Shown here: piece after piece, positions 2,831 through 64,000 of the stretch
Layout of the letters: the number at the start of each line of letters is the position of its first letter
Position numbering within the stretch: the first letter of the stretch is position 1
Origin: Balanoglossus misakiensis
Taxonomy: Eukaryota > Animalia > Hemichordata
Direction of reading: 5' to 3'
DNA length: 64,000 nt
Assembly (NCBI GenBank): GCA_040954595.2
Contig: CM082584.2
Location: 730,281-794,280, forward strand
Notes under the pieces: model-generated
What the model saw: the letters and a program-made list of their open reading frames with translations, nothing else
Database searches by the model: none
Told to the model about the DNA's origin: nothing
Position numbers and translations under genes: made by a program

Positions 2831-5800
2831 TGACGGGAATTCAATGTTAGAAAACCCGTGTGGAAAGTATCTCTACCCGTTTGAAACTAAGAAAAGAATT
2901 TATTCTTATTTATTTTGTAAAAAAGACAATTTTTCGAAAAAAAGTCGAAAAATTGCAATTTTGTCTTGGGTGATTCAAATTATACCGCCTTTTCTGGAAT
3001 TTGCAGCACTTTTTACAAGAGAACGACACTTCATGCTCCATAATATTTCCGAAAATGAAGAAAAGAGTTTATTTTTTATGATTTTTTAAAAATGTACCAT
3101 TTTGTCAAAATATGGCCAAAATGGCTATTTTTTCTTGAATTCCGTCAATATCTCTGCATTTTTGGAGTGGTCGAAAGTTTTAACATACAATCAACATGTC
3201 ATATATGATCAGGGCACCAAATTCGAAGAACGAAGGTTTTTTTATTTTATTTTTCTAAAAATGACATTTTCAAGAAAAATTTGGTAAAACGCAATTTTGT
3301 CTGCAGTGAGCCAAATTAGACGGTCTTTTGTGGAATTTGTATCGATATATATATACGAAGAGCATTCTATACTCCATCAGATTTCCGAAAATGTAGAAAA
3401 CAGGTATTTTTTGTAATTTTCAAAAATTTACCATTTTGACCAAATTGTGGTTAAAATTGTTATTTTCGTGTTGAATGCCGCCAGTGTCACTGCTTTTAAA
3501 AGTCATAAAAACTTTTAACATGCAAGCAATTGCTTATATATGATCAGGCCACCGAATTAAAAAAATAAAGAATGTTTTGCCTAAAAATGACCTTTTTGGT
3601 GCAAAAACGAATAAAACGCAATTTTGTATTAAATCAGCTCATTCAGAGTGCATTTTTTATAATCAGCACCATTTTTACATATATTGGAAATTTCATACAT
3701 CATCAGATATCCAAATATGAAAAAATGATTTAGATTTTAGATGATTGTCCAAAATTAGCTGATATCTAATAAATGTAGTATTGAACCGTTCTGTCCCCCC
3801 CCCCCCTACATTATATGCGGTACGCCGATGTCAGCTTACCCGGCAGTACTGCAGGCCGTGCCCCCAAATAACGTCGGTGTTTGAAACGCCCTGGTTAAAT
3901 TCGGGCTTTCTCTATAAATTGACAGGCAATAATGCAGTCCTACCCGAACAAATGTCGAGTGTTGACCCGCTGTGACTTTCCCTCTTCGGTTTGCCCGACT
4001 TAGCCAACGTCTTTGTACTAATGTGTCGGGTCTTTTGCAGAGCCAGGCCGAAGGAAATCCGACTTGATCACCGTTGCTAACGAACGCTAGTGTCTGTCAT
4101 GGTGTGCCGGGGTTTTAGTCGAGCCAGGCCGTAGGAGATCTGACTTGATCATCGTGGTCAATGTACGCGTGTTTCCGCTCTAAAGTGCCGGGGCTTCAGC
4201 TAAACCATGCCGTAGGAAATCCGACGTAATCACCGTTGATAACTTACGCCAGTCTGTGTCATATAGAGCCGGTGCACCAGCCGAGTCACGCCGTAGGAAA
4301 TCTTACTTGATCAACGTGGTCAATGTACGCCTGTTTCTGCTCTAGAGTGCCGGGGCTTCAGCTGAGCCAGGCCGTGGGAAACCCGACGTGATTACCGTTG
4401 TTAACTTACGCCAGTTTGTGTCCTATATATAGTGCCGGGGCATCAGCCGTGCCAGGCCGAAGGAAATGTGAGTAGATCAACGTGGTCTCTGTACGCGTGT
4501 TTCTGCTCTAGAGTGCCAGGGCTTTAGCCAAGCCATGCCGTAGGAAATCTGACTTGATCAACGTTTCTAACGAACGCTAATGTCTGTCATAGTGTGCCGG
4601 GGTTTTAGTCGAGCTAAGCCGTAGGAGATCAGACTTGATCAACGTGGTCTCTGTACGCGTGTTTCTGCTCTAGAGTGCCGGGGCTTTATCCAACCCATGC
4701 CGTAGAAAATCTGACTTGATCACCGTTGCTAACGTACGCTAGTGTCTGTCATATTGTGACGGAGATTTAGCCGAGCCAGGCCGTAGAAAAATCGACTTGT
4801 TCAACGTTACCAGTGTGCAACTGTTTCTGCTCTAGAGTGTCAGGGTTTTAGCCGACTTATGCTGTAGGAAATCTGAGTTGATGAACGGGAATTCAATGTT
4901 AGAAAACCCGTGTGGAAAGTATCTCTACCCGTTTGAAACTAAGAAAAGAATTTATTCTTATTTATTTTGTAAAAAAGACAATTTTTCGAAGAAAAGTCGA
5001 AAAATTGCAATTTTGTCTTGGGTGATTCAAATTATACCGCCTTTTCTGGAATTTGCAGCACTTTTTACAAGAGAACGACACTTCATGCTCCATAATATTT
5101 CCGAAAATGAAGAAAAGAGTTAATTTTTTATGATTTTTCAAAAATTTACCATTTTTGTCAAAATATGGCCAAAATGGCTATTTTTCTTGAATTCCGTCAA
5201 TATCTCTGCATTTTTGGAGTGGTCGAGAGTTTTAACATACAATCAACATGTCATATATGATCAGGGCACCAAATTCGAAGAATAAAGGTTTTTTTATTTT
5301 TTTTTCTAAAAATGACATTTTCAAGAAAAATTTGGTAAAACGCAATTTTGTCTGCAGTGAGCCAAATTAGACGGTCTTTTGTGGAATTTGTATCGATATA
5401 TACATACGAAGGGCATTCTATACTCCATCAGATTTCCGAAAATGTAGAAAACAGGTATTTTTTGTAATTTTCAAAAATTTACCATTTTGACCAAATTGTG
5501 GCTAAAATTGTTATTTTCGTGATGAATGCCGCCAGTGTCACTGCTTTTAAAAGTCATAAAAACTTTTAACATACAAGCAATTGTTTATATATGATCAGGT
5601 CACCGAATTAAAAAAATAAAGAATGTTTTGCCTAAAAATTACCTTTTTGGTGCAAAAACGAATAAAACGCAATTTTGTATTAAATCAGCTCATTCAGAGT
5701 GCATTTTTTATAATCAGCACCATTTTTACATATATTGGAAATTTCATACATCATCAGATATCCAAATATGAAAAAATGATTTAGATTTTAGATGATTGTC

Positions 5801-8800
5801 CAAAATTAGCTGATATCTAATAAATGTAGTATTGAACCGTTCTGTCCCCCCCTACATTATATGCGGTACGCCGATGTCAGCTTACCCGGCAGTACTGCAG
5901 GCCGTGCCCCCAAATAACGTCGGTGTGTGAAACGCCCTGGTTAAATTCGGGCTTTCTCTATAAATTAACAGGCAATAATGCAGTCCTACCCGAACAAATG
6001 TCGAGTGTTGACCCGCTGTGACTTTCCCTCTTCGGTTTGCCCGACTTAGCCAACGTCTTTGTACTAGAGGGTCGGGTCTTTTGCCGAGCCAGGCCGAAGG
6101 AAATCCGACTTGATCACCGTTGCTAACGAACGCTAGTGTCTGTCATGGTGTGCCGGGGTTTTAGTCGAACCAGGCCGTAGGAAATCTGACTTGATCAACG
6201 TGGTCAATGTACGCGTGTTTCCGCTCTAAAGTGCCGGGGCTTCAGCTAAACCATGCCGTAGGCAATCCGACGTAATCACCGTTGATAACTTACGCCAGTC
6301 TGTGTCATATAGAGCCGGTGCACTAGCCGAATCACGCCGTAGGAAATCTGACTTGATCAACGTGGTCAATGTACGCCTGTTTCTGCTCTAGAGTGCCGGG
6401 GCTTCAGCTGAGCCAGGCCGTAGGAAACCCGACGTGATTACCGTTGTAAACTTACGCCAGTCTGTGTCCTATATATAGTGCCGGGGCATCAGCCGTGCCA
6501 GGCCGAAGGAAATGTGAGTAGATCAACGTGGTCTCTGTACGCGTGTTTCTGCTCTAGAGTGCCGGGGCTTTATCCAAGCCATGCCGTAGAAAATCTGACT
6601 TGATCACCGTTGCTAACGTACGATAGTGTCTGTCATAGTGTGCCGGGGTTTTAGTCGAGCCAAGCCGTAGGAGATCAGACTTCATCAACGTGGTCTCTGT
6701 ACGCGTGTTTCTGCTCTAGAGTGCCGGGGCTTTATCCAAGCCATGCCGTAGAAAATCTGACTTGATCACCGTTGCTAACGTGCGCTAGTGTCTGTCATAT
6801 TGTGACGGAGATTTAGCCGAGCCAGGCCGTAGAAAAATCGACTTGTTCAACGTTACCAGTGTGCAACTGTTTCTGCTCTAGAGTGTCAGGGTTTTAGCCG
6901 ACTTATGCTGTAGGAAATCTGAGTTGATGAACGGGAATTCAATGTTAGAAAACCCGTGTGGAAAGTATCTCTACCCGTTTGGAACTATGAAAAGAATTTA
7001 TTCTTATTTATTTTGTGAAACAAGACAATTTTTCGAAAAAAAGTCGAAAATGGTAATTTTGTCTTGGGTGATTCAAATTATACCACATTTTCTGGAATTT
7101 GCAGCACTTTTTACAAGAGAACGACACTTCATGCTCCATAATATTTCCGAAAATGAAGAAAAGAGTTTATTTTTTATGATTTTTTAAAAATGTACCATTT
7201 TGTCAAAATATGGCCAAAATGGCAATTTTTTCGTGAATTCCGTCAATATCTCTGCATTTTTGGAGTGGTCGAAAGTTTTAACATACAATCAACATGTCAT
7301 ATATGATCAGGGCACCAAATTCGAAGAACGAAGGTTTTTTTATTTTATTTTTCTAAAAATGACATTTTAAAGGAAAATTTGGTAAAACGCAATTTTGTCT
7401 GCAGTGAGCCAAATTAGACGGTCTTTTGTGGAATTTGTATCGATATATATATACGAAGAGCATTCTATACTCCATCAGATTTCCGAAAATGTAGAAAACA
7501 GGTATTTTTTGTAATTTTCAAAAATTTACCATTTTGACCAAATTGTGGTTAAAATTGTTATTTTCGTGTTGAATGCCGCCAGTGTCACTGCTTTTAAAAG
7601 TCATAAAAACTTTTAACATGCAAGCAATTGCTTATATATGATCAGGCCACCGAATTAAAAAAATAAAGAATGTTTTGCCTAAAAATGACCTTTTTGGTGC
7701 AAAAACGAATAAAACGCAATTTTGTATTAAATCAGCTCATTCAGAGTGCATTTTTTATAATCAGCACCATTTTTACATATATTGGAAATTTCATACATCA
7801 TCAGATATCCAAATATGAAAAAATGATTTAGATTTTAGATGATTGTCCAAAATTAGCTGATATCTAATAAATGTAGTATTGAACCGTTCTGTCCCCCCCT
7901 ACATTATATGCGGTACGCCGATGTTAGCTTACCCGGCAGTACTGCAGGCCGTGCCCCCAAATAACGTCGGTGTGTGAAACGCCCTGGTTAAATTCGGGCT
8001 TTCTCTATAAATTAACAGGCAATAATGCAGTCCTACCCGAACAAATGTCGAGTGTTGACCCGCTGTGACTTTCCCTCTTCGGTTTGCCCGACTTAGCCAA
8101 CGTCTTTGTACTAATGTGTCGGGTCTTTTGCAGAGCCAGGCCGAAGGAAATCCGACTTGATCACCGTTGCTAACGAACGCTAGTGTCTGTCATGGTGTGC
8201 CGGGGTTTTAGTCGAGCCAGGCCGTAGGAGATCTGACTTGATCATCGTGGTCAATGTACGCGTGTTTCCGCTCTAAAGTGCCGGGGCTTCAGCTAAACCA
8301 TGCCGTAGGAAATCCGACGTAATCACCGTTGATAACTTACGCCAGTCTGTGTCATATAGAGCCGGTGCACCAGCCGAATCACGCCGTAGGAAATCTGACT
8401 TGATCAACGTGGTCAATGTACGCCTGTTTCTGCTCTAGAGTGCCGGGGCTTCAGCTGAGCCAGGCCGTAGGAAACCCGACGTGATTACCGTTGTTAACTT
8501 ACGCCAGTCTGTGTCCTATATATAGTGCCGGGGCATCAGCCGTGCCAGGCCGAAGGAAATGTGAGTAGATCAACGTGGTCTCTGTACGCGTGTTTCTGCT
8601 CTAGAGTGCCGGGGCTTTATCCAAGCCATGCCGTAGAAAATCTGACTTGATCACCGTTGCTAACGTACGATAGTGTCTGTCATAGTGTGCCGGGGTTTTA
8701 GTCGAGCCAAGCCGTAGGAGATCAGACTTCATCAACGTGGTCTCTGTACGCGTGTTTCTGCTCTAGAGTGCCGGGGCTTTATCCAAGCCATGCCGTAGAA

Positions 8801-55400: not shown

Positions 55401-57745
55401 CGTTAGCAACGGTGATCAAGTCTGATTTCCTTCGGCCTGGCTCTGCAAAAGACCCGACACATTAGTACAAAGACGTTGGCTAAGTCGGGCAAACCGAAGA
55501 GGGAAAGTCACAGCGGGTCAACACTCGACATTTGTTCCGGTAGGACTACATTATTGGCTGTCAATTTATAGAGAAAGCCCGAATTTAACCAGGGCGTTTC
55601 AAAAGGCGGTATAATTTGAATCACCCAAGAAAAAATTACCATTTTCGACTTTTTTTCTCTCGAAAAATTGTCTTTTTTACAAAATAAATAAGAATAAATT
55701 CTTTTCTTAGTTTCAAACGGGTAGAGATACTTTCCACACGGGTTTTCTAACATTGAATTCCCGTTCATCAACTCAGATTTCCTACAGCATAAGTCGGCTA
55801 AAACCCTGACACTCTAGAGCAGAAACAGTTGCACACTGTTAACGTTGAACAAGTCGATTTTTCTACTGCCTGGCTCGGCTAAATCTCCGTCACAATATGA
55901 CAGACACTAGCGTACGTTAGCAACGGTGATCAAGTCAGATTTTCTACGGCATGGCTTGGATAAAGCCCCGGCACTCTAGAGCAGAAACACGCGTACAGAG
56001 AGCACGTTGATCAAGTCTGATCTCCTACGGCTTGGCTCGACTAAAACCCCGGCACACTATGACAGACACTAGCGTTAGTAAGCAACGTTGATCAAGTCAT
56101 ATTTCCTACGGCATGGCTTGGCTAAAGCCCTGGCACTATAGACCAGAAACACGCGTACAGAGACCACGATGATCTACTCACATTTCCTTCGGCCTGGCAC
56201 GGCTGATGCCCCGGCACTACATATAGGACACAGACTGGCGTAAGTTAACAACGGTAAACACGTCGGGTTTCCTACGGCCTGGCTCAGCTGAAGCCCCGGC
56301 ACTCTAGAGCAGAAACAGGCGTACATTGACCACGTTGATCAAGTCAGATTTCCTACGGCGTGACTCGGCTGGTGCACCGGCTCTATATGACACAGACTGG
56401 CGTAAGTTATCAACGGTGATTACGTCGGATTTCCTACGGCCTGGTTTAGCTGAAGCCCCTGCACTCTAGAGCAGAAACAGGCGTACATTGACCACGTTGA
56501 TCAAGTCAGATTTCCTACGGCGTGACTCGGCTGGTGCACCGGCTCTATATGACACAGACTGGCGGAAGTTATCAACGGTGATTACGTCGGATTTCCTACG
56601 GCCTGGTTTAGCTGAAGCCCCGGCACTTTAGAGCGGAAATACGCGTACATTGACCACGATGATCAAGTCAGATCTCCTACGGCCTGGCTCGACTAAAACC
56701 CCGGCACACCATGACAGACACTAGCGTTCGTTAGCAACGTTGATCAAGTCGGAATTCCTTAGGCCTGGCTCTGCAAAAGACCCGACACTCTAGAGCAGAA
56801 ACACGCGTACAGAGACCACGTTGATCTACTCGGATTTCCTTCGGCCTGGCTCTGCAAAAGACCCGACACTCTAGTACAAAGACGTTGGCTAAGTCGGGCA
56901 AACCGAAGAGGGAAAGTCACAGCGGGTCAACACTCGACATTTGTTCGGGTATGACTGCATTATTGCCTGTCAATTTATAGAGAAAGCCCGAATTTAACCA
57001 GGGCGCTTCAAACACCGACGTTAGTTGGGGGCACGGCCTGCAGTACTGCCGGGTAAGCTGACATCGGCGTACCGCATATAATGTAGGGGGGGGGGGGACG
57101 GAACGGTTCAATACTACATTTATTAGATATCAGCTAATTTTGGACAATCATCTAAAATCTAAAAATCTAAATCATTTTTTCATATTTGGATATCTGATGA
57201 TGTATGAAATTTCCATTATATGTAAAAAATGGTGCTGATTATAAAAAATGCACTCTGAATGAGCTGATTTAATACAAAATTGCGTTTTATTCGTTTTTGC
57301 ACCAAAAAGGTCATTTTTAGGGAAAACATTCTTTATTTTTTTAATTCGGTGACCTGATCATATATAAACAATTGCTTGTATGTTAAAAGTTTTGATGACT
57401 TTTAAAAGCAGTGACACTGGCGGCATTCAACACGAAAATAACAATTTTAGCCACAATTTGGTCAAAATGGTAAATTTTTGAAAATTACAAAAAATACCTG
57501 TTTTCTACATTTTCGGAAATCTGATGGAGTATAGAATGCTCTTCGTATGTATATATCGATACAAATTCCACAAAATACAGTCTTATTTGGCTCACTGCAG
57601 ACGAAATTGCGTTTTACCAAATTTTCCTTGAAAATGTCATTTTTAGAAAAAAAATAAAAAAACCTTTGTTCTTCGAATTTGGTGCCCTGATCATATATGA
57701 CATGTTGATTGTATGTTAAAACTTTCGACCACTCCAAAAATGCAG
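46474..57745 (-). repeat. Macrosatellite A, second inverted block, truncated by the transposon
   Basis: Poly-G at ~47449, 49500, 51735, 53625 and 57086; ends abruptly at CCAAAAATGCAG, where other units continue AGATATTGACGG. Confidence 0.99.
50781..50962 (-). mobile_element. 5'-truncated non-LTR retrotransposon (L2/CR1 group) 3' end, copy 2
   Basis: 182-bp copy with the same truncation point, site and AGCGTT duplication (50775-50780, 50963-50968); differs from copy 1 by a 5-bp and a 1-bp indel. Confidence 0.9.
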
Positions 57746-57782
57746 CACTGCGGCCCAGAAGTGTGTTCATTTGTCCGCTATT
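57746..57782 (+). repeat. Left terminal inverted repeat (bipartite)
   Basis: CACTGCGGCCCAG-N11-TTTGTCCGCTATT; each 13-bp block matches the right end at 11/13 in ungapped register. Confidence 0.9.
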
Positions 57783-57846
57783 CCGCGAAGCGGAAATATG
57801 TTAATTGAGGTCATATGCTGGGGTCACGTTCCTAGCATCGTATATA

Positions 57847-57859
57847 CAAAATGGCGGCG
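57847..57859 (+). promoter_or_regulatory. YY1-type motif overlapping the start codon of the accessory gene
   Basis: CAAAATGGCGGCG matches the YY1 consensus; a related CAAAGATGGCG lies in the right TIR spacer (~63285-63295). Motif match only. Confidence 0.35.
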
Positions 57860-58471
57860 TCCATGATCGATGTTTCTAAAACAGTGAAACGTAAGCTGCG
57901 TGAGGCCAAATTTCAGTTATTGAGGACAAATATCGACCGTTCCATCAACCTACATGATTGTTTTGATGATCTCGATGCTGCTGTTGATGTAACAGTTCGC
58001 AAACGTAGTGCAACGATGGTGGAGCTTGCGAAGATGCAGCAGATTCCGGTGTATCCTGTATTCGAACGGGAGATGTGTCACTGGCGCTCAACAATTATGC
58101 AGAGAATGAAGCCATCACCCTCAGTGCGCAACCCATGGAAGTGCAGTTTTGGTAGGAATGTTCCTATGGAAGTTTTCGATGTATTTCGACAGTGCGCTAC
58201 CCGTAATTCAATGGGAATTTATGATCGGGAAACTCCATGTATTGCTACCTTTCGATTTACCTGGATCAACAAAGTGAATTACGTGCTGGGTAGAGGTGTC
58301 AACTATGAAAACCAACAACTTCTGGTGAAGACAGTAAAGGGTAAGCGGGTGGAAGTTATCTGCACCGAAGATAAACCTATGATTGTCAGATACAGGAAAT
58401 CAGCCGAGACAGTGACAATACATTTCCATTTTGGATGCTGGAACAAACATGGTGTTGCTCAGCATTTGTGA
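57851..58471 (+). CDS. 206-aa protein of unknown function; accessory gene of the transposon
   Basis: Uninterrupted, non-repetitive ORF with start context CAAAATGG 105 bp inside the left TIR; AT-rich 3' region with ATTAAA at ~58579; no domain recognised. Confidence 0.75.
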   Translation: MAASMIDVSKTVKRKLREAKFQLLRTNIDRSINLHDCFDDLDAAVDVTVRKRSATMVELAKMQQIPVYPVFEREMCHWRSTIMQRMKPSPSVRNPWKCSFGRNVPMEVFDVFRQCATRNSMGIYDRETPCIATFRFTWINKVNYVLGRGVNYENQQLLVKTVKGKRVEVICTEDKPMIVRYRKSAETVTIHFHFGCWNKHGVAQHL

Positions 58472-58891
58472 AATCATATTTAGACTGTTGTTGAAATTTT
58501 TTTTCATGTTCTTGGAACTGACTATATTACTTTTTGTCAGTCCATTTGAATTCATGCATCGTTGCATGTCCAAGCAAAATTAAAAAAGAAAAACATGTTT
58601 TATAGGAACTGAATAGCTGTGGGTGAATCATTTATCATTCAGTTTTTATTCACTTATTTTGAAACATGGTTATCTACAGAGCTGATATAAGCAGCTAGTT
58701 TCAAAGGATGATTAAAAAGCTATATACATATTTTGAACAATACAATACAAGCAGCACAAAATCTGTGACATTCATAATGAAAGATTATTTACAACAAACT
58801 CTCTTACAGTTATATACAAATCTAAAACTATCTGGTACATTTCATGTACAGTAATAATTGTTTTGAATCATGAAATTCAAACTTTCACATT

Positions 58892-59980
58892 TTATTTCAT
58901 TATTTTTTTTAGTTTTTTTGAGATCTTACCACTAATTGCAGACTGTTTTATTTCTGACATAAATTCACTGCTGCATATTTCACAGGAATTTGACAACTCT
59001 TCCTTTACATTCCCACAATAACAGTATGATGGGTCATCAAAGCATTTGTCTGGGATGTACTTTATTACTTTGGAGGCATTTGACCTCCCATCCCCCCTGT
59101 AGTTATCTGAAGCGGGGTCTCGCATGCGTAACCAGTACAACAATACATACTCATGTCTGAAAATTAGTGGCCATCTATTTTGAGGGGTGGAATTATTGCT
59201 GTATTCCAGAAGGCGCTGATGTTTTGCCTCCCTGCCCTCCATTGTATTAAGCCCAAGCCCCATTTGGAACTGCTGGTGGATTTGAGATGCATGACACGGA
59301 ACAACATATCCTATATGCCAAATAGTATTGTTTACGGTCAGAAATAACGCATGCAAATTGAAGTACCATTTGCACTTCTGCCTTAGTACTACAATATCTC
59401 TCTCATGTAGGGTAAACCTGGAACAGAGAGATGTTATATCTCTGAGTAGGACACCAATGTAACCATACAGGGACAATTTCGCTCTCACCTGTGCACTGAT
59501 ACCGGGTTCCCTAAAACACTCTATCAGTGACATAAAAGACCATGCCAACTTCCTTGATTCTTCCCCTGTAAAGCGGTGAACTCTCACTGATTGGGCATGG
59601 GTACTAACCTTATTCTCAGCAAAATATTTGACAATTTGATTGTATAGTTTCCCTGCTCTCACTGTATATTTTAGTGTATGCAGGAATTTGTACAGGCATG
59701 AATTTGGTGGTAGCTTTTCTAATTTCACACCATGGTCAATGACTTTTTGGTCAGTCTTAGCCACAGCATCAGTAAGAAGCCTTTGAAAGAAATACTGCCA
59801 GGCATTGTTTTTTAGATGTAGGGGTTCTATCTTGGCACACTGTATATACTTACCCAGGGGTGGAATATATTCCTGTCGGGATTTTCTGGAGGCAATGAAA
59901 CGTGTGACCTTAGAGCGATCTGTCGATGTTTCAGGCTTACCTGTTTTCTTTGTCAAATTTGCTTTGAATTTTGCCACTGC
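58892..59980 (-). CDS. RAG1/Transib/Chapaev-like transposase, C-terminal part (catalytic Glu), out of frame with the central part
   Basis: IEPLHLK (cf. RAG1 IDALHCD, Chapaev PLHIK), RFTGEESRKL (cf. RMNGNFARKL), LGLNTMEGREAKH (Glu at 59228-59230, cf. IGAWASEGNESGN with E962), and a C-terminal CxC-x10-CxxC. Confidence 0.87.
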   Translation of the reverse strand, partial: AVAKFKANLTKKTGKPETSTDRSKVTRFIASRKSRQEYIPPLGKYIQCAKIEPLHLKNNAWQYFFQRLLTDAVAKTDQKVIDHGVKLEKLPPNSCLYKFLHTLKYTVRAGKLYNQIVKYFAENKVSTHAQSVRVHRFTGEESRKLAWSFMSLIECFREPGISAQVRAKLSLYGYIGVLLRDITSLCSRFTLHERDIVVLRQKCKWYFNLHALFLTVNNTIWHIGYVVPCHASQIHQQFQMGLGLNTMEGREAKHQRLLEYSNNSTPQNRWPLIFRHEYVLLYWLRMRDPASDNYRGDGRSNASKVIKYIPDKCFDDPSYCYCGNVKEELSNSCEICSSEFMSEIKQSAISGKISKKLKKIMK

Positions 59981-61098
59981 TTATAGCTCCACTCTGACCA
60001 AAATTTCCCTGGCCCTATATCTGCCCCTATTTCATCTATGCTACCTTTTGTTACATTAGCAAAGGAACTGAAATACTCAGCAGCATTAGATAACTCACCA
60101 GAAACTGAGGCTAATCCCTTTTGATCAAATGGCAGCAAAGATACATTAAACTTTACACTCAGGCCATGTAAAGTGTATTGTTTGGCCTCTATGATCTCAA
60201 ACTCTTTGGCTAGGTTTTTAGCATAATCTATCAGGACTGGGTCATCTTCCTTCAGATTAGCCCCTAGCAACAAGAAATTATCATCAGGGCTTGCTAATCT
60301 GTGGCCCACATTGATGAAACTGACAAGCCAGGAAGTTGCCTGACCATATTTTCCAAAAGGAGCCCCATCAGCACCAACAGCAAGTTGGAAAGTGCCCTTC
60401 GGTTTGCCAAACCAATTTAGGATGTTAGGGTGGTGCTCACTCAAGCAAAGATACATGTCAGCAACTTTAAAGAGCATCTGCTCTGTATTTCGCTTCATAC
60501 CCACTACTTTGTTTGCATCTGTTACAATTGGTTCAAGACTTCCTATATCTAAACCACGTGTATATTCAGTGACCTTGTTGTAGGAAAGTAACCTTGGTAT
60601 GTTACACCTAAAGTGAAATTGCAACACTTTTCTAGGTTGTTTTAATTTAGACAGATTCAACTCACTATTACGTAAGGCATTGTATTTGCGTTTTGACAAA
60701 ACCCCATTCTGATACAACACTTGCACACTCCTAGTCAAATTACCTTCACTTTTCTCAAATTCAGATATTGATTTCTTTATCAAAGTTGGTATGACCAATT
60801 CATTTATTTTCATTGATGATTGAAGGTACTTTTCCATTTGACGTGGAGTGGCACTGTTGATCAAAGTATACCATAGCCCATCAAGAGCTGATTTTGGTGG
60901 ATTTGCTCTGACATGTCTCCCTGCAGATATATCTGTTCCTGATGATGACTGGTGTATGACTGTAGCTGCATGAAGAGTCTGACTTCTGCGTTCATGTTGC
61001 TGACTTCTGGACAGTGTGAGGCATTCACTGTTATTAGCACAAACCTGGCTGCTTTTATGAACCCACTTCTGTTTCTTTGGGGATGTCAAATCTGCAAT
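59953..61098 (-). CDS. RAG1/Transib/Chapaev-like transposase, central part (first two catalytic Asp)
   Basis: FQLAVGADGAPFG (Asp at 60367-60369, cf. RAG1 D600 motif SCDG) and DQKGLASVSGELSNAAEYF (Asp at 60124-60126, cf. RAG1 D708 [19 protein letters not shown]). No ATG start, so probably an internal exon; in-frame AAG acceptor at 61099. Confidence 0.85.
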   Translation of the reverse strand: MADLTSPKKQKWVHKSSQVCANNSECLTLSRSQQHERRSQTLHAATVIHQSSSGTDISAGRHVRANPPKSALDGLWYTLINSATPRQMEKYLQSSMKINELVIPTLIKKSISEFEKSEGNLTRSVQVLYQNGVLSKRKYNALRNSELNLSKLKQPRKVLQFHFRCNIPRLLSYNKVTEYTRGLDIGSLEPIVTDANKVVGMKRNTEQMLFKVADMYLCLSEHHPNILNWFGKPKGTFQLAVGADGAPFGKYGQATSWLVSFINVGHRLASPDDNFLLLGANLKEDDPVLIDYAKNLAKEFEIIEAKQYTLHGLSVKFNVSLLPFDQKGLASVSGELSNAAEYFSSFANVTKGSIDEIGADIGPGKFWSEWSYKQWQNSKQI

Positions 61099-61130
61099 CT
61101 TTAATAAATGAATACAAAACAGATTTTCAT

Positions 61131-61700
61131 TGTCATGCCAAGGTCAAACAGGTAGGCAATGTCACATGAGCAAGCAATACACATGAATGGAAACCCCAGT
61201 GTCATGCCAAGGTCAAACATGGAGGCCATGTCACATGAGCAAGCAATACACATGAATGGAAACCCCAGTGTCATGCCAAGGTCAAACAGAGAGAAAATAT
61301 CACATGATCAAGCAATACACATGAATGGAAATCCCAGTGTCATGCCAAGGTCAAACATGGAGGCCATGTCACATGAGCAAGCAATACACATAAATGGAAA
61401 CCCCAGTGTCATGCCAAGGTCAAACATGGAGGCCATGTCACATGAGCAAGCAATACACATAAATGGAAACCCACGTGTCATGCCAAGGTCAAACATGGAG
61501 GCCATGTCACATGAGCAAGCAATACACATGAATGGAAACCCCAGTGTCATGCCAAGGTCAAACAGAGAGAGAATATCACATGATCAAGCAATACACATGA
61601 ATGGAAATCCCAGTGTCATGCCAAGGTCAAACAGAGAGGCAATGTCACATGAGCAAGCAATATGCATAAATGGAAACCCCAGTGTTATGCCAAGGTCAAG
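61131..61700. repeat. 69-bp minisatellite (~8.3 copies) in the putative transposase intron
   Basis: TGTCATGCCAAGGTCAAAC at 61131, 61200, 61269, 61338, 61407, 61476, 61545, 61614 and (variant) 61683. Confidence 0.97.
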
Positions 61701-61926
61701 CAGGGAGGTGTTTCAAAGCTGTAGTTCAGAATTTAGAAAACAAACACACATAAAATCATATCATATACATTAAAGCAAGGTCAAAATGTTTTATGATTCA
61801 CTTAGTTGTAATATAATTTAAAGTATACAAACTTTAATTTGGTGGATATTTTCCTATTCTGCTTGTAATCATAAATCTTGTGAAAATCTGAAATGAAGCT
61901 AAATTCCTTCTATATAATTACCTTAC

Positions 61927-62277
61927 CTCCTGATTAAGCTTAACCCTATTTCCAGCTAATCTCCTTTGCTTCTTTGCTAGCCTGTTTAGTTGCTTACTGG
62001 CCCTGTCGACTAGTCTCCTCTTTGCATCTAATTTCTGCATTTTCTCTCTGTACTGAGCTACCTCTTCCTCACGTCTACGCTTTCTCTCTCTTGCCCATGC
62101 CCCTAGCTTGTATCTATTCTCTGACTTGCTCTTAACCTTTTCTGGCAGTGTCTTTGCAGCTAACTCAGCATCTAACAGCTGTTGAAGTTGTATGTCTCTA
62201 GCTATTTCTCTGGCTTTTTTTTGTTGGACTGCATACTGCCCGATGTCAAAATGGTTTGTCCTTTTCCTGTTAGGCAT
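61927..62277 (-). CDS. Probable N-terminal coding exon of the transposase (basic, coiled-coil-like)
   Basis: ATG-initiated K/R/E/Q-rich ORF on the same strand, ending at a good phase-0 donor GAG|GTAAGG (61927/61926) that is frame-compatible with the acceptor at 61099; splicing is inferred. Confidence 0.6.
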
Positions 62278-63275
62278 GATTTGAGTTATATCCAGAGCAC
62301 AGCTGGGATGGAGTTACACAATGGAGCATTTCCTAAATGTGAATAAATGTGAAAAGTTGTAGAAAACATAAAAGGTCATCTAGAAAGCTGTTTCAGTCAA
62401 ACAGTTCCAAACAGACAGTATTTAATGACGCTACAGAAGACCTGATGATATAAAAGACTGTGTATTTTGCGAAGTACTGGCATACTGTTGCAAGTACCGG
62501 AACATTGATTGAGTATAATCAGCTGCAATCTACGTATATTGCGCGTGGACGCAGTTCCTTCTGTGTGCGTCTGCTTTGCCTAAACGCTGTACGCGCGCGG
62601 CGTTCAAAGCGCTGTCGCAAGAACTCTCTCGTTCAAAATATTTACTCTTACATTTTAGAACGAAAATGATATATCAACATGTTATATAGATATCAAGGAA
62701 CAATCTGCTCGTTTTGGTTTTTTAGGTTCACGCTTCAAACTCGAGAAATCTGCCGATATGTTTTGCCTGACGGTCGACATTTGCGTAGCTGTGCCATTGT
62801 AATCAATGGTAGAGCGACGCGCAGGCAGAACGCGCCAAACTCGATGAATTTCTGCTTGGATCAATTTCTACATATGACCTTTTTGGGGATAGAAAATCAA
62901 AACACTGAGTTACAAACGTCTTAGGAACACTCTCATGGTTTTGAAATTTTGAATAATGCATTAAGATTTGATTTTTTCGGCCGTTTTTCTGTCTTGGTTG
63001 TGGTTGCTATGTTCTTTGTTTACATAGTTACCAATGATAGCGATTTGAAACCAGGTCAGATTTTCAGTGAAATTAAATGAATAGAAATCAGAGAATGATG
63101 ACAATACTAGCTTAAGACCTTAAAGAATATGATAACGTGATGTAAACATTATAAATGCGTTTAATGTCTTGTAATACTTACCGGCATTTTCATGTTGTTG
63201 TAACTGGCGAACGTTCCATTGCCGGTAACAAATCGCCTCATACATTATTCATGAGGCCATGAAAGTAGGGACGGA

Positions 63276-63312
63276 AATATCAGACAAAGATGGCGCACAC
63301 TGGGCTGTAGTG
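63276..63312 (-). repeat. Right terminal inverted repeat (bipartite)
   Basis: Reverse complement reads CACTACAGCCCAG-N11-TTTGTCTGATATT. Confidence 0.9.
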
Positions 63313-64000
63313 CAGAGCTAGTGGTCAGTGTCGTGCCAATCAATTTTGAGTGTTTGGTGGGGTCAACATATGCGTCAACATTGATTAGTCAGGCCATGCA
63401 GAGCTAGTGGCCAGTGTCGTGCCCATCAATTTTGAGTGTTTGGTGGGGTCAACATTTGCGTCAACATTGATTAGCCAGGCCATGCAGAGCTAGTGGCCAG
63501 TGTCGTGCCCATCAATTTTGAGTGTTTGGCGGGGTCAACCTTTGCGTCAACCTTGATTAGCCAGGCCATGCAGAGCTAGTGGCCAGTGTCGTGCCCATCA
63601 ATTTTGAGTGTTTGGTGGGGTCAACCTTTGCGTCAACATTGATTAGCCAGGCCAGGCAGAGCTAGTGGCCAGTGTCGTGCCCATTAATTTTGAGTGTTTG
63701 GTGGGGTCAACCTTTGCGTCAACATTGATTAGCCAGCCCAGAGCTAGTGGCCAGTGTCGTGCCCATTAATTTTGAGTGTTTGGTGGGGTCAACCTTTGCG
63801 TCAACATTGATTAGCCAGCCCAGAGCTAGTGGCCAGTGTCGTGCCCATTAATTTTGAGTGTTTGGTGGGGTCAACCTTTGCGTCAACATTGATTAGCCAG
63901 CCCAGAGCTAGTGGCCAGTGTCGTGCCCATCAATTTTGAGTGTTTGGTGGGGTCAACCCTTGCGTCAACATTGATTAGCCAGGCCAGAGCTAGTGGCCAG
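63313..64000. repeat. Satellite B, 86/82-bp monomer, runs off the window end
   Basis: CAGAGCTAGTGG at 63313, 63399, 63485, 63571, 63657, 63739, 63821, 63903 and 63985. Confidence 0.98.

Follow-up and report, generated by a model that had tools for sequence, protein, structure and literature searches.

A conserved second gene convergent with a transposase of predicted RAG1 fold in a DNA transposon of the acorn worm Balanoglossus misakiensis

The window analysed here, a stretch of 64,000 nucleotides of Balanoglossus misakiensis (contig CM082584.2), contains a cut-and-paste DNA transposon of 5,567 bp in which two genes, a small accessory gene and a transposase, lie within one pair of ends and on opposite strands. 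The features of the element and its borders are the following:

57743..57745, + strand: left copy of the 3-bp target-site duplication CAG, from the comparison of the flanks
57746..63312, no strand: the transposon, with the ends CACTGCGGCCCAG and CACTACAGCCCAG (the latter as reverse complement)
57746..57860, + strand: left terminal inverted repeat, from end-to-end alignment, a short core that then becomes degenerate
57851..58471, + strand: accessory gene of 206 aa, pI 9.7, from translation, HMMER, profile and structure model
58892..59980, - strand: C-terminal half of the transposase, 60% identical to P0002, with EPLH, the catalytic E in MEGRE, RHE and CxC..CxxC
59977..61098, - strand: N-terminal half of the main transposase exon, 65% identical to residues 3-311 of P0002
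61131..61708, no strand: 69-bp tandem repeat in 8.4 copies, from a tandem-repeat scan, within the putative transposase intron
61927..62277, - strand: likely first coding exon of the transposase, beginning MPNRKRTNHFDIGQY, lysine/arginine-rich, with weak N-terminal matches
63190..63312, - strand: right terminal inverted repeat and sub-terminal region, from end-to-end alignment
63313..63315, + strand: right copy of the duplication CAG, from the comparison of the flanks

The element terminates in CAC...GTG, and both of its ends are CpG-rich and carry a AANATGGCG motif, which we take to resemble a YY1 site. The similarity between the two ends is loose over ~110 bp, the left stretch reaching into the start of the small ORF, and the left terminal inverted repeat would act as the promoter of the small gene. 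The ATG of this gene is located 105 bp from the element end in the window and 77-131 bp from it in the related loci where an end was found, with the start context AA/T-N-ATGGCG present in 15 of 15 small genes. The 420-bp gap between the two genes includes candidate poly(A) signals for both of them. The intronic repeat at 61131-61708 is also open on the + strand in one frame, for 205 codons, which its period of 69, a multiple of three, probably explains.

Duplications of 3 bp were found in five of the 11 elements for which both ends and their flanking sequence are present (p 4e-6 at a chance rate of 1/40), and duplications of 4 or 5 bp in none of the 11; the remaining six include assemblies with a shared left flank and different right flanks, a sign of mixed copies or assemblies. 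In the window, the two flanks are different satellites, each with ATGCAGAG at the insertion site: a 2-kb satellite on the left, where the same 25-mer continues with AGATATT at 11 other copies, and an 86-bp tandem array on the right. The position of this copy between two satellites, at ATG^CAG^AG, would suit a small protein that steers insertion to satellites, a chromatin mark or something similar. However, this is a single insertion, the five duplications seen are all different (CAG, TTA, AGC, TAG and ATT), and the likeness of the small protein to CENP-N is weak (TM 0.23, rmsd 18), so that we regard a targeting role as improbable.

The left satellite fills the window from 1 to 57745 in units of 2.05 kb with nested 81/162-bp subrepeats, running in one direction up to ~32 kb and in the opposite one from ~33 kb, which makes it an inverted arrangement of very large size; a short patch at ~45.9-46.5 kb is also reversed. 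The locus was also followed in contigs of two runs, which come from one sample and one of which may be the source of the window. Contigs of run X1 span both element ends (57716-59980 and 63032-63355) and go on into the flanking sequences of the window, pointing to a single insertion site and not to dispersed copies; this run additionally holds a second, more diverged version over ~61700-62950. In run X2, one contig joins the flanking satellites directly, from 57743 to 63397, with CGC between them (ATG CCG CTG CAG AG), a junction with a short side of 27 letters that weakly resembles an excision footprint with an inverted duplication.

The transposase has its two catalytic D residues in GADGAP and FDQK, both encoded in the 59977..61098 segment, which would begin at a splice acceptor at ~61098 and has a frame break at its 3' end. 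Upstream of it, the likely first exon matches weakly the N-termini of P0028, P0017 and P0015 (E 5e-4 to 4e-3). The frame break, at 59977-59980, removes ~6-7 residues in comparison with its closest relative P0002, a 679-aa protein assigned by its source to Ptychodera flava, and the same break is present in the contigs of both runs, with no other allele listed. The initial annotation had stressed that the small gene is intact while the transposase is frameshifted; both observations are correct, but they say little, since across the 34 related loci a split reading frame occurs 14 times in the transposase and three times in the small gene, approximately what a 3.5-fold larger target predicts.

Relatives of this transposase with a named source come from Ptychodera, Nematostella, Exaiptasia, Actinostola and Lineus, and D181, D262 and E566 are invariant in 30 of 30 aligned transposases. 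By sequence, the transposase has no match in the PDB and none to the Pfam RAG1 family. In predicted structure, the P0002 model aligns with RAG1 at Foldseek E 6e-12 and Z 22.6 over 462 residues (rmsd 3.8, ~10% identity), followed by BbRAG1L (Z 19.9), HzTransib (19.6), the P element (12.3), ISCth4 (7.8) and Hermes (6.4), in a list that holds no CACTA or Chapaev structure, the top rank of RAG1 therefore not discriminating within the clade. None of the 30 aligned transposases has the C(2)C motif that would follow the second D, and they show Y/F-F/P-S-x-F in its place, and the zinc site of the catalytic domain appears from this alignment to have been lost. Before the catalytic E, in the H(3-4)H motif, the second His is kept in 28 of 30 and the first in 12 of 30; the window has Tyr. 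Neither Transposase_21 (PF02992) nor Plavaka matches any of the 30 transposases at E<=0.1, and Transposase_21 matches neither of the window halves at E<=1.

The small gene, at 57851-58471 on the + strand, reads through 206 codons with no stop, as first described, and the WKCSFGRNVPMEVF segment is present in its protein. The basic N-terminal KTVKRKLREAK is there as well, but it is not a trait of the family, whose median net charge over residues 1-33 is -2; the basic stretch that is kept across the family corresponds to residues 63-96, with a net charge of +6. In the window, position 58190 is C, and both runs have A, which changes codon 114 from Gln to Lys.

The description of this gene as an orphan has to be abandoned. 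A word-indexed search with the single 206-aa protein gave no match, and a full HMMER scan did find relatives, with 115 protein matches at E<=0.001 and 24 at <=1e-10, so that the lack of homologs contemplated in the initial annotation as a possible outcome is not what is observed. At least three of the 115 (P0055, P0104 and P0141) are chance repeat matches; the true relatives are mostly proteins of ~200-260 aa with 25-38% identity, sharing P95-W96, P105, F109 and a terminal GxWNxxGxPQH. Members with a named source belong to Pocillopora, Porites, Acropora and Tubulanus, viral contigs contained no relative, and the ESM Atlas gave no usable match for P0001 or P0036. The family PF26709.1 is found on 70 of the 76 proteins matched by the small-protein profile search. 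The literature searched does not mention PF26709, and its entry may already note a transposon link; its named records say just 'uncharacterized' or 'hypothetical', and the element supplies this family with a context.

Two members depart from the usual architecture. In a gene model of Tubulanus polymorphus, P0127, whose cluster holds three isoforms, residues 466-608 are the C-terminal small-protein domain placed behind tau/MAP tubulin-binding repeats, possibly by exaptation or by a gene-model fusion. At L072:2760-3887, ~700 bp separate two parts of the small gene, a gap that is likely an intron; most other copies are single-exon.

The model of the small protein is confident (pLDDT 94, pTM 0.82) and consists of an N-terminal hairpin of two long helices (1-62), then a basic helix (67-85), and last an alpha/beta domain that closes with the conserved GxWNxxGxPQH motif. 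In agreement with the initial annotation, the 206-aa ORF has no kelch or PHD match in Pfam, the model has neither a propeller nor a PHD finger, and no such match exists among the 78 rows of the small-protein profile. The proposed check by structure prediction and Foldseek thus succeeded in its first half, giving a confident model, and failed in the second, with no clear fold match (best E in the PDB 0.04); by sequence, the profile also finds nothing in the PDB (best E 0.12). The fold searches ran on the full-length model, and in the VIA-wide search the list was filled by matches of the N-terminal hairpin (Z<=7.2). For the C-terminal domain, AcrID1 (Z 5.1 over 80 residues, rmsd 4.3), Vif (Z 5.0), and RnlA and AFV1 ORF99 (both Z 4.6) were considered and set aside, as was the best BFVD match (E 9e-4, with a TM of 0.21), since the Z, E and TM values of all of them are in the range of common arrangements. 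The family has a median pI of 9.3, with no acidic column above 74% and no invariant acidic residue, which fits a binding role rather than a catalytic one.

The association of the small gene with the transposase was examined in loci fetched by the transposase only, with 30 of its 32 matches aligned as the query, and with a small-gene profile made of the ORF and 77 of the 115 matches. Among the best 80 of 232 loci, 44 continue for at least 1 kb past the transposase on its downstream side, and 34 of these carry a homolog of the small gene, which none of the 36 shorter loci does. All 34 are downstream and on the opposite strand, convergent and tail-to-tail with the transposase, and no homolog appears upstream at a strong E. 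Eight of the ten misses have <2 kb downstream, less than the gap in some families; the other two, L020 and L047, have >2.9 kb and are real misses. As the 34 loci are redundant, the 29 that are long enough were clustered at 70% identity, which gave 14 families. The window ORF is recovered at E 6e-43 by a profile built solely from 13 locus-derived proteins. Two copies, L068, with its transposase at 3340-5475 and its small gene at 6239-6853, and L070, are complete with both frames open. The ORF is, accordingly, a conserved second gene that stays with the transposase across at least 14 divergent families.

Both genes have travelled together. Their tree distances correlate over 15 family representatives (Mantel r 0.78, p 1e-4, a p value that is optimistic because kin share labels, in a comparison where one pair has no overlapping transposase columns), and in IQ-TREE analyses of 13 rows three of the four starred transposase clades are recovered in the small-protein tree, the fourth being unresolved and no starred conflict appearing. 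Mean identity is 24% for the small protein vs 41% for the transposase, so the helper diverges much faster. The dN/dS check among copies was carried out on related loci, the window gene having no close relative, and with saturated pairs (dS>1.2) set aside. In three independent pairs (dS 0.16-0.31) the small gene gives 0.35, 0.21 and 0.33, and the transposase 0.12, 0.32 and 0.21, with third-position differences in 81 of 165 (p 2e-5); less favourable pairs are L033/L034, at 0.62, and L053/L055, at 1.5 on six differences. In the relatives, purifying selection acts on the small gene. This selection, and the conservation of the protein across families only ~40% alike in transposase, weigh against a gene that restrains the element, as a repressor protein or by antisense read-through, or that is a neutral captured passenger. 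An antisense overlap is possible in a convergent layout, and the fast divergence would suit either case, but the gap holds the poly(A) signals mentioned above, and no host-gene homolog was found except for the single fusion; we therefore give restraint or a passenger status little chance.

We favour, with modest confidence, a small protein that is a non-catalytic helper acting with the RAG1-fold transposase. As in MuDR, each end would hold a promoter that drives the adjacent gene towards the interior, and the DDE transposase would cut at the ends and insert with a 3-bp stagger. The basic helper would bind the complex of transposase and DNA, its basic helix (around R84/R85) contacting the DNA and its invariant C-terminal aromatic motif a protein partner, and would promote assembly or target capture, as RAG2 does for RAG1 and as is credited to MURB in MuDR. 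Precedents for an element helper are RAG2 (PMC7204232) and TnpA of Spm (PMC1636069), as those sources outline them. Linkage and matching trees would nevertheless be expected for any gene helping the element and do not single out the transposase as the partner, which leaves some room for an anti-silencing or promoter-regulating factor that, bound to the DNA or chromatin of the element, would hold its end promoters in an active state and leave the transposase untouched. Such a factor would be in keeping with a basic and fast-evolving protein and with CpG-rich ends carrying AANATGGCG, and it has parallels in Spm TnpA, described as reactivating a methylated promoter (PMC1636069), and in the TET genes of fungal CMCT elements, described as serving such a purpose (PMC12730594). 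However, the 78 rows of the profile include no known chromatin or DNA-modifying Pfam domain, the complete elements have no conserved tandem binding array (trf, 12 loci), and the invariance of the C-terminal motif speaks for a fixed partner instead of an arms race. We consider this anti-silencing role unlikely, and retain the transposase helper as the preferred reading.

A wider proposal, which we put forward only tentatively, is that these elements form an undescribed superfamily-level lineage beside Transib/RAG, with a transposase that has lost the zinc site of its catalytic domain and relies instead on a small obligatory subunit with a new fold. Two-subunit transposases of the RAG1 type would then have arisen a second time, independently, and this lineage would be widespread in corals, sea anemones, ribbon worms and acorn worms. 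The literature searched, with Repbase Reports, most subscription papers and bioRxiv supplements outside its scope, holds no description of the lineage, which a Repbase or PF26709 entry may already cover. Once paired with RAG2, RAG1 turned into the antibody-gene recombinase. A related transposase with a different partner in the same position, kept over deep time, is a natural point of comparison on the contribution of a partner subunit, one that L068 and L070, complete and with both frames open, make testable.

Compared with known systems, the element resembles RAGL/ProtoRAG in its CAC ends, its two convergent genes, and the predicted RAG1 core fold with its DDE triad. RAGL elements are described as making 5-bp duplications and as carrying a RAG1L gene that converges with a kelch-PHD RAG2L gene (PMC7204232; PMC9435367), whereas here the second gene encodes a 206-aa alpha/beta protein and not a six-kelch propeller with a PHD finger, the duplication is of 3 bp, C(2)C is missing, and identity is ~10%. 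These first three differences discard a RAG transposon identity, so that, of the initial placement of the gene in the RAG2 position of a RAG transposon, an accessory gene that belongs to the element and converges with a RAG1-fold transposase is strongly supported, by linkage, matching trees and purifying selection, and the identity of the element is not. The helper being unrelated to RAG2 in its predicted fold, the shared position would be a convergence. Transib shares the fold (HzTransib) and the CAC ends, but differs by its C(2)C, by having no conserved second gene like this one, and by an identity of ~10-12% by structure; as some Transib relatives are reported to make 3-bp duplications (10.64898/2026.08.26.747230), duplication length alone does not set the element apart from Transib. 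EnSpm/CACTA and Chapaev3 have CAC..GTG ends and 3-bp duplications in the account of PMC12730594, and Spm also has two proteins, TnpD and TnpA. However, the transposases of this family lack the Transposase_21 and C(2)C of EnSpm/CACTA, and TnpA, described as coming from the same spliced transcript (PMC1636069), contrasts with a helper that is here a separate gene on the other strand. The nearest layout is that of maize MuDR, where a transposase and a small helper gene converge from two ends, mudrB being described as the convergently transcribed helper (10.1101/2020.01.09.900282); the transposase class is unrelated (Mutator-type ISCth4), and the likeness is an analogy of layout. The element does have the CA..TG ends and 2-5 bp duplication typical of CMCT, and it is best read as a deviant lineage of this group (CACTA, Mirage, Chapaev, Transib, RAG1), separate from RAGL, EnSpm and Transib.
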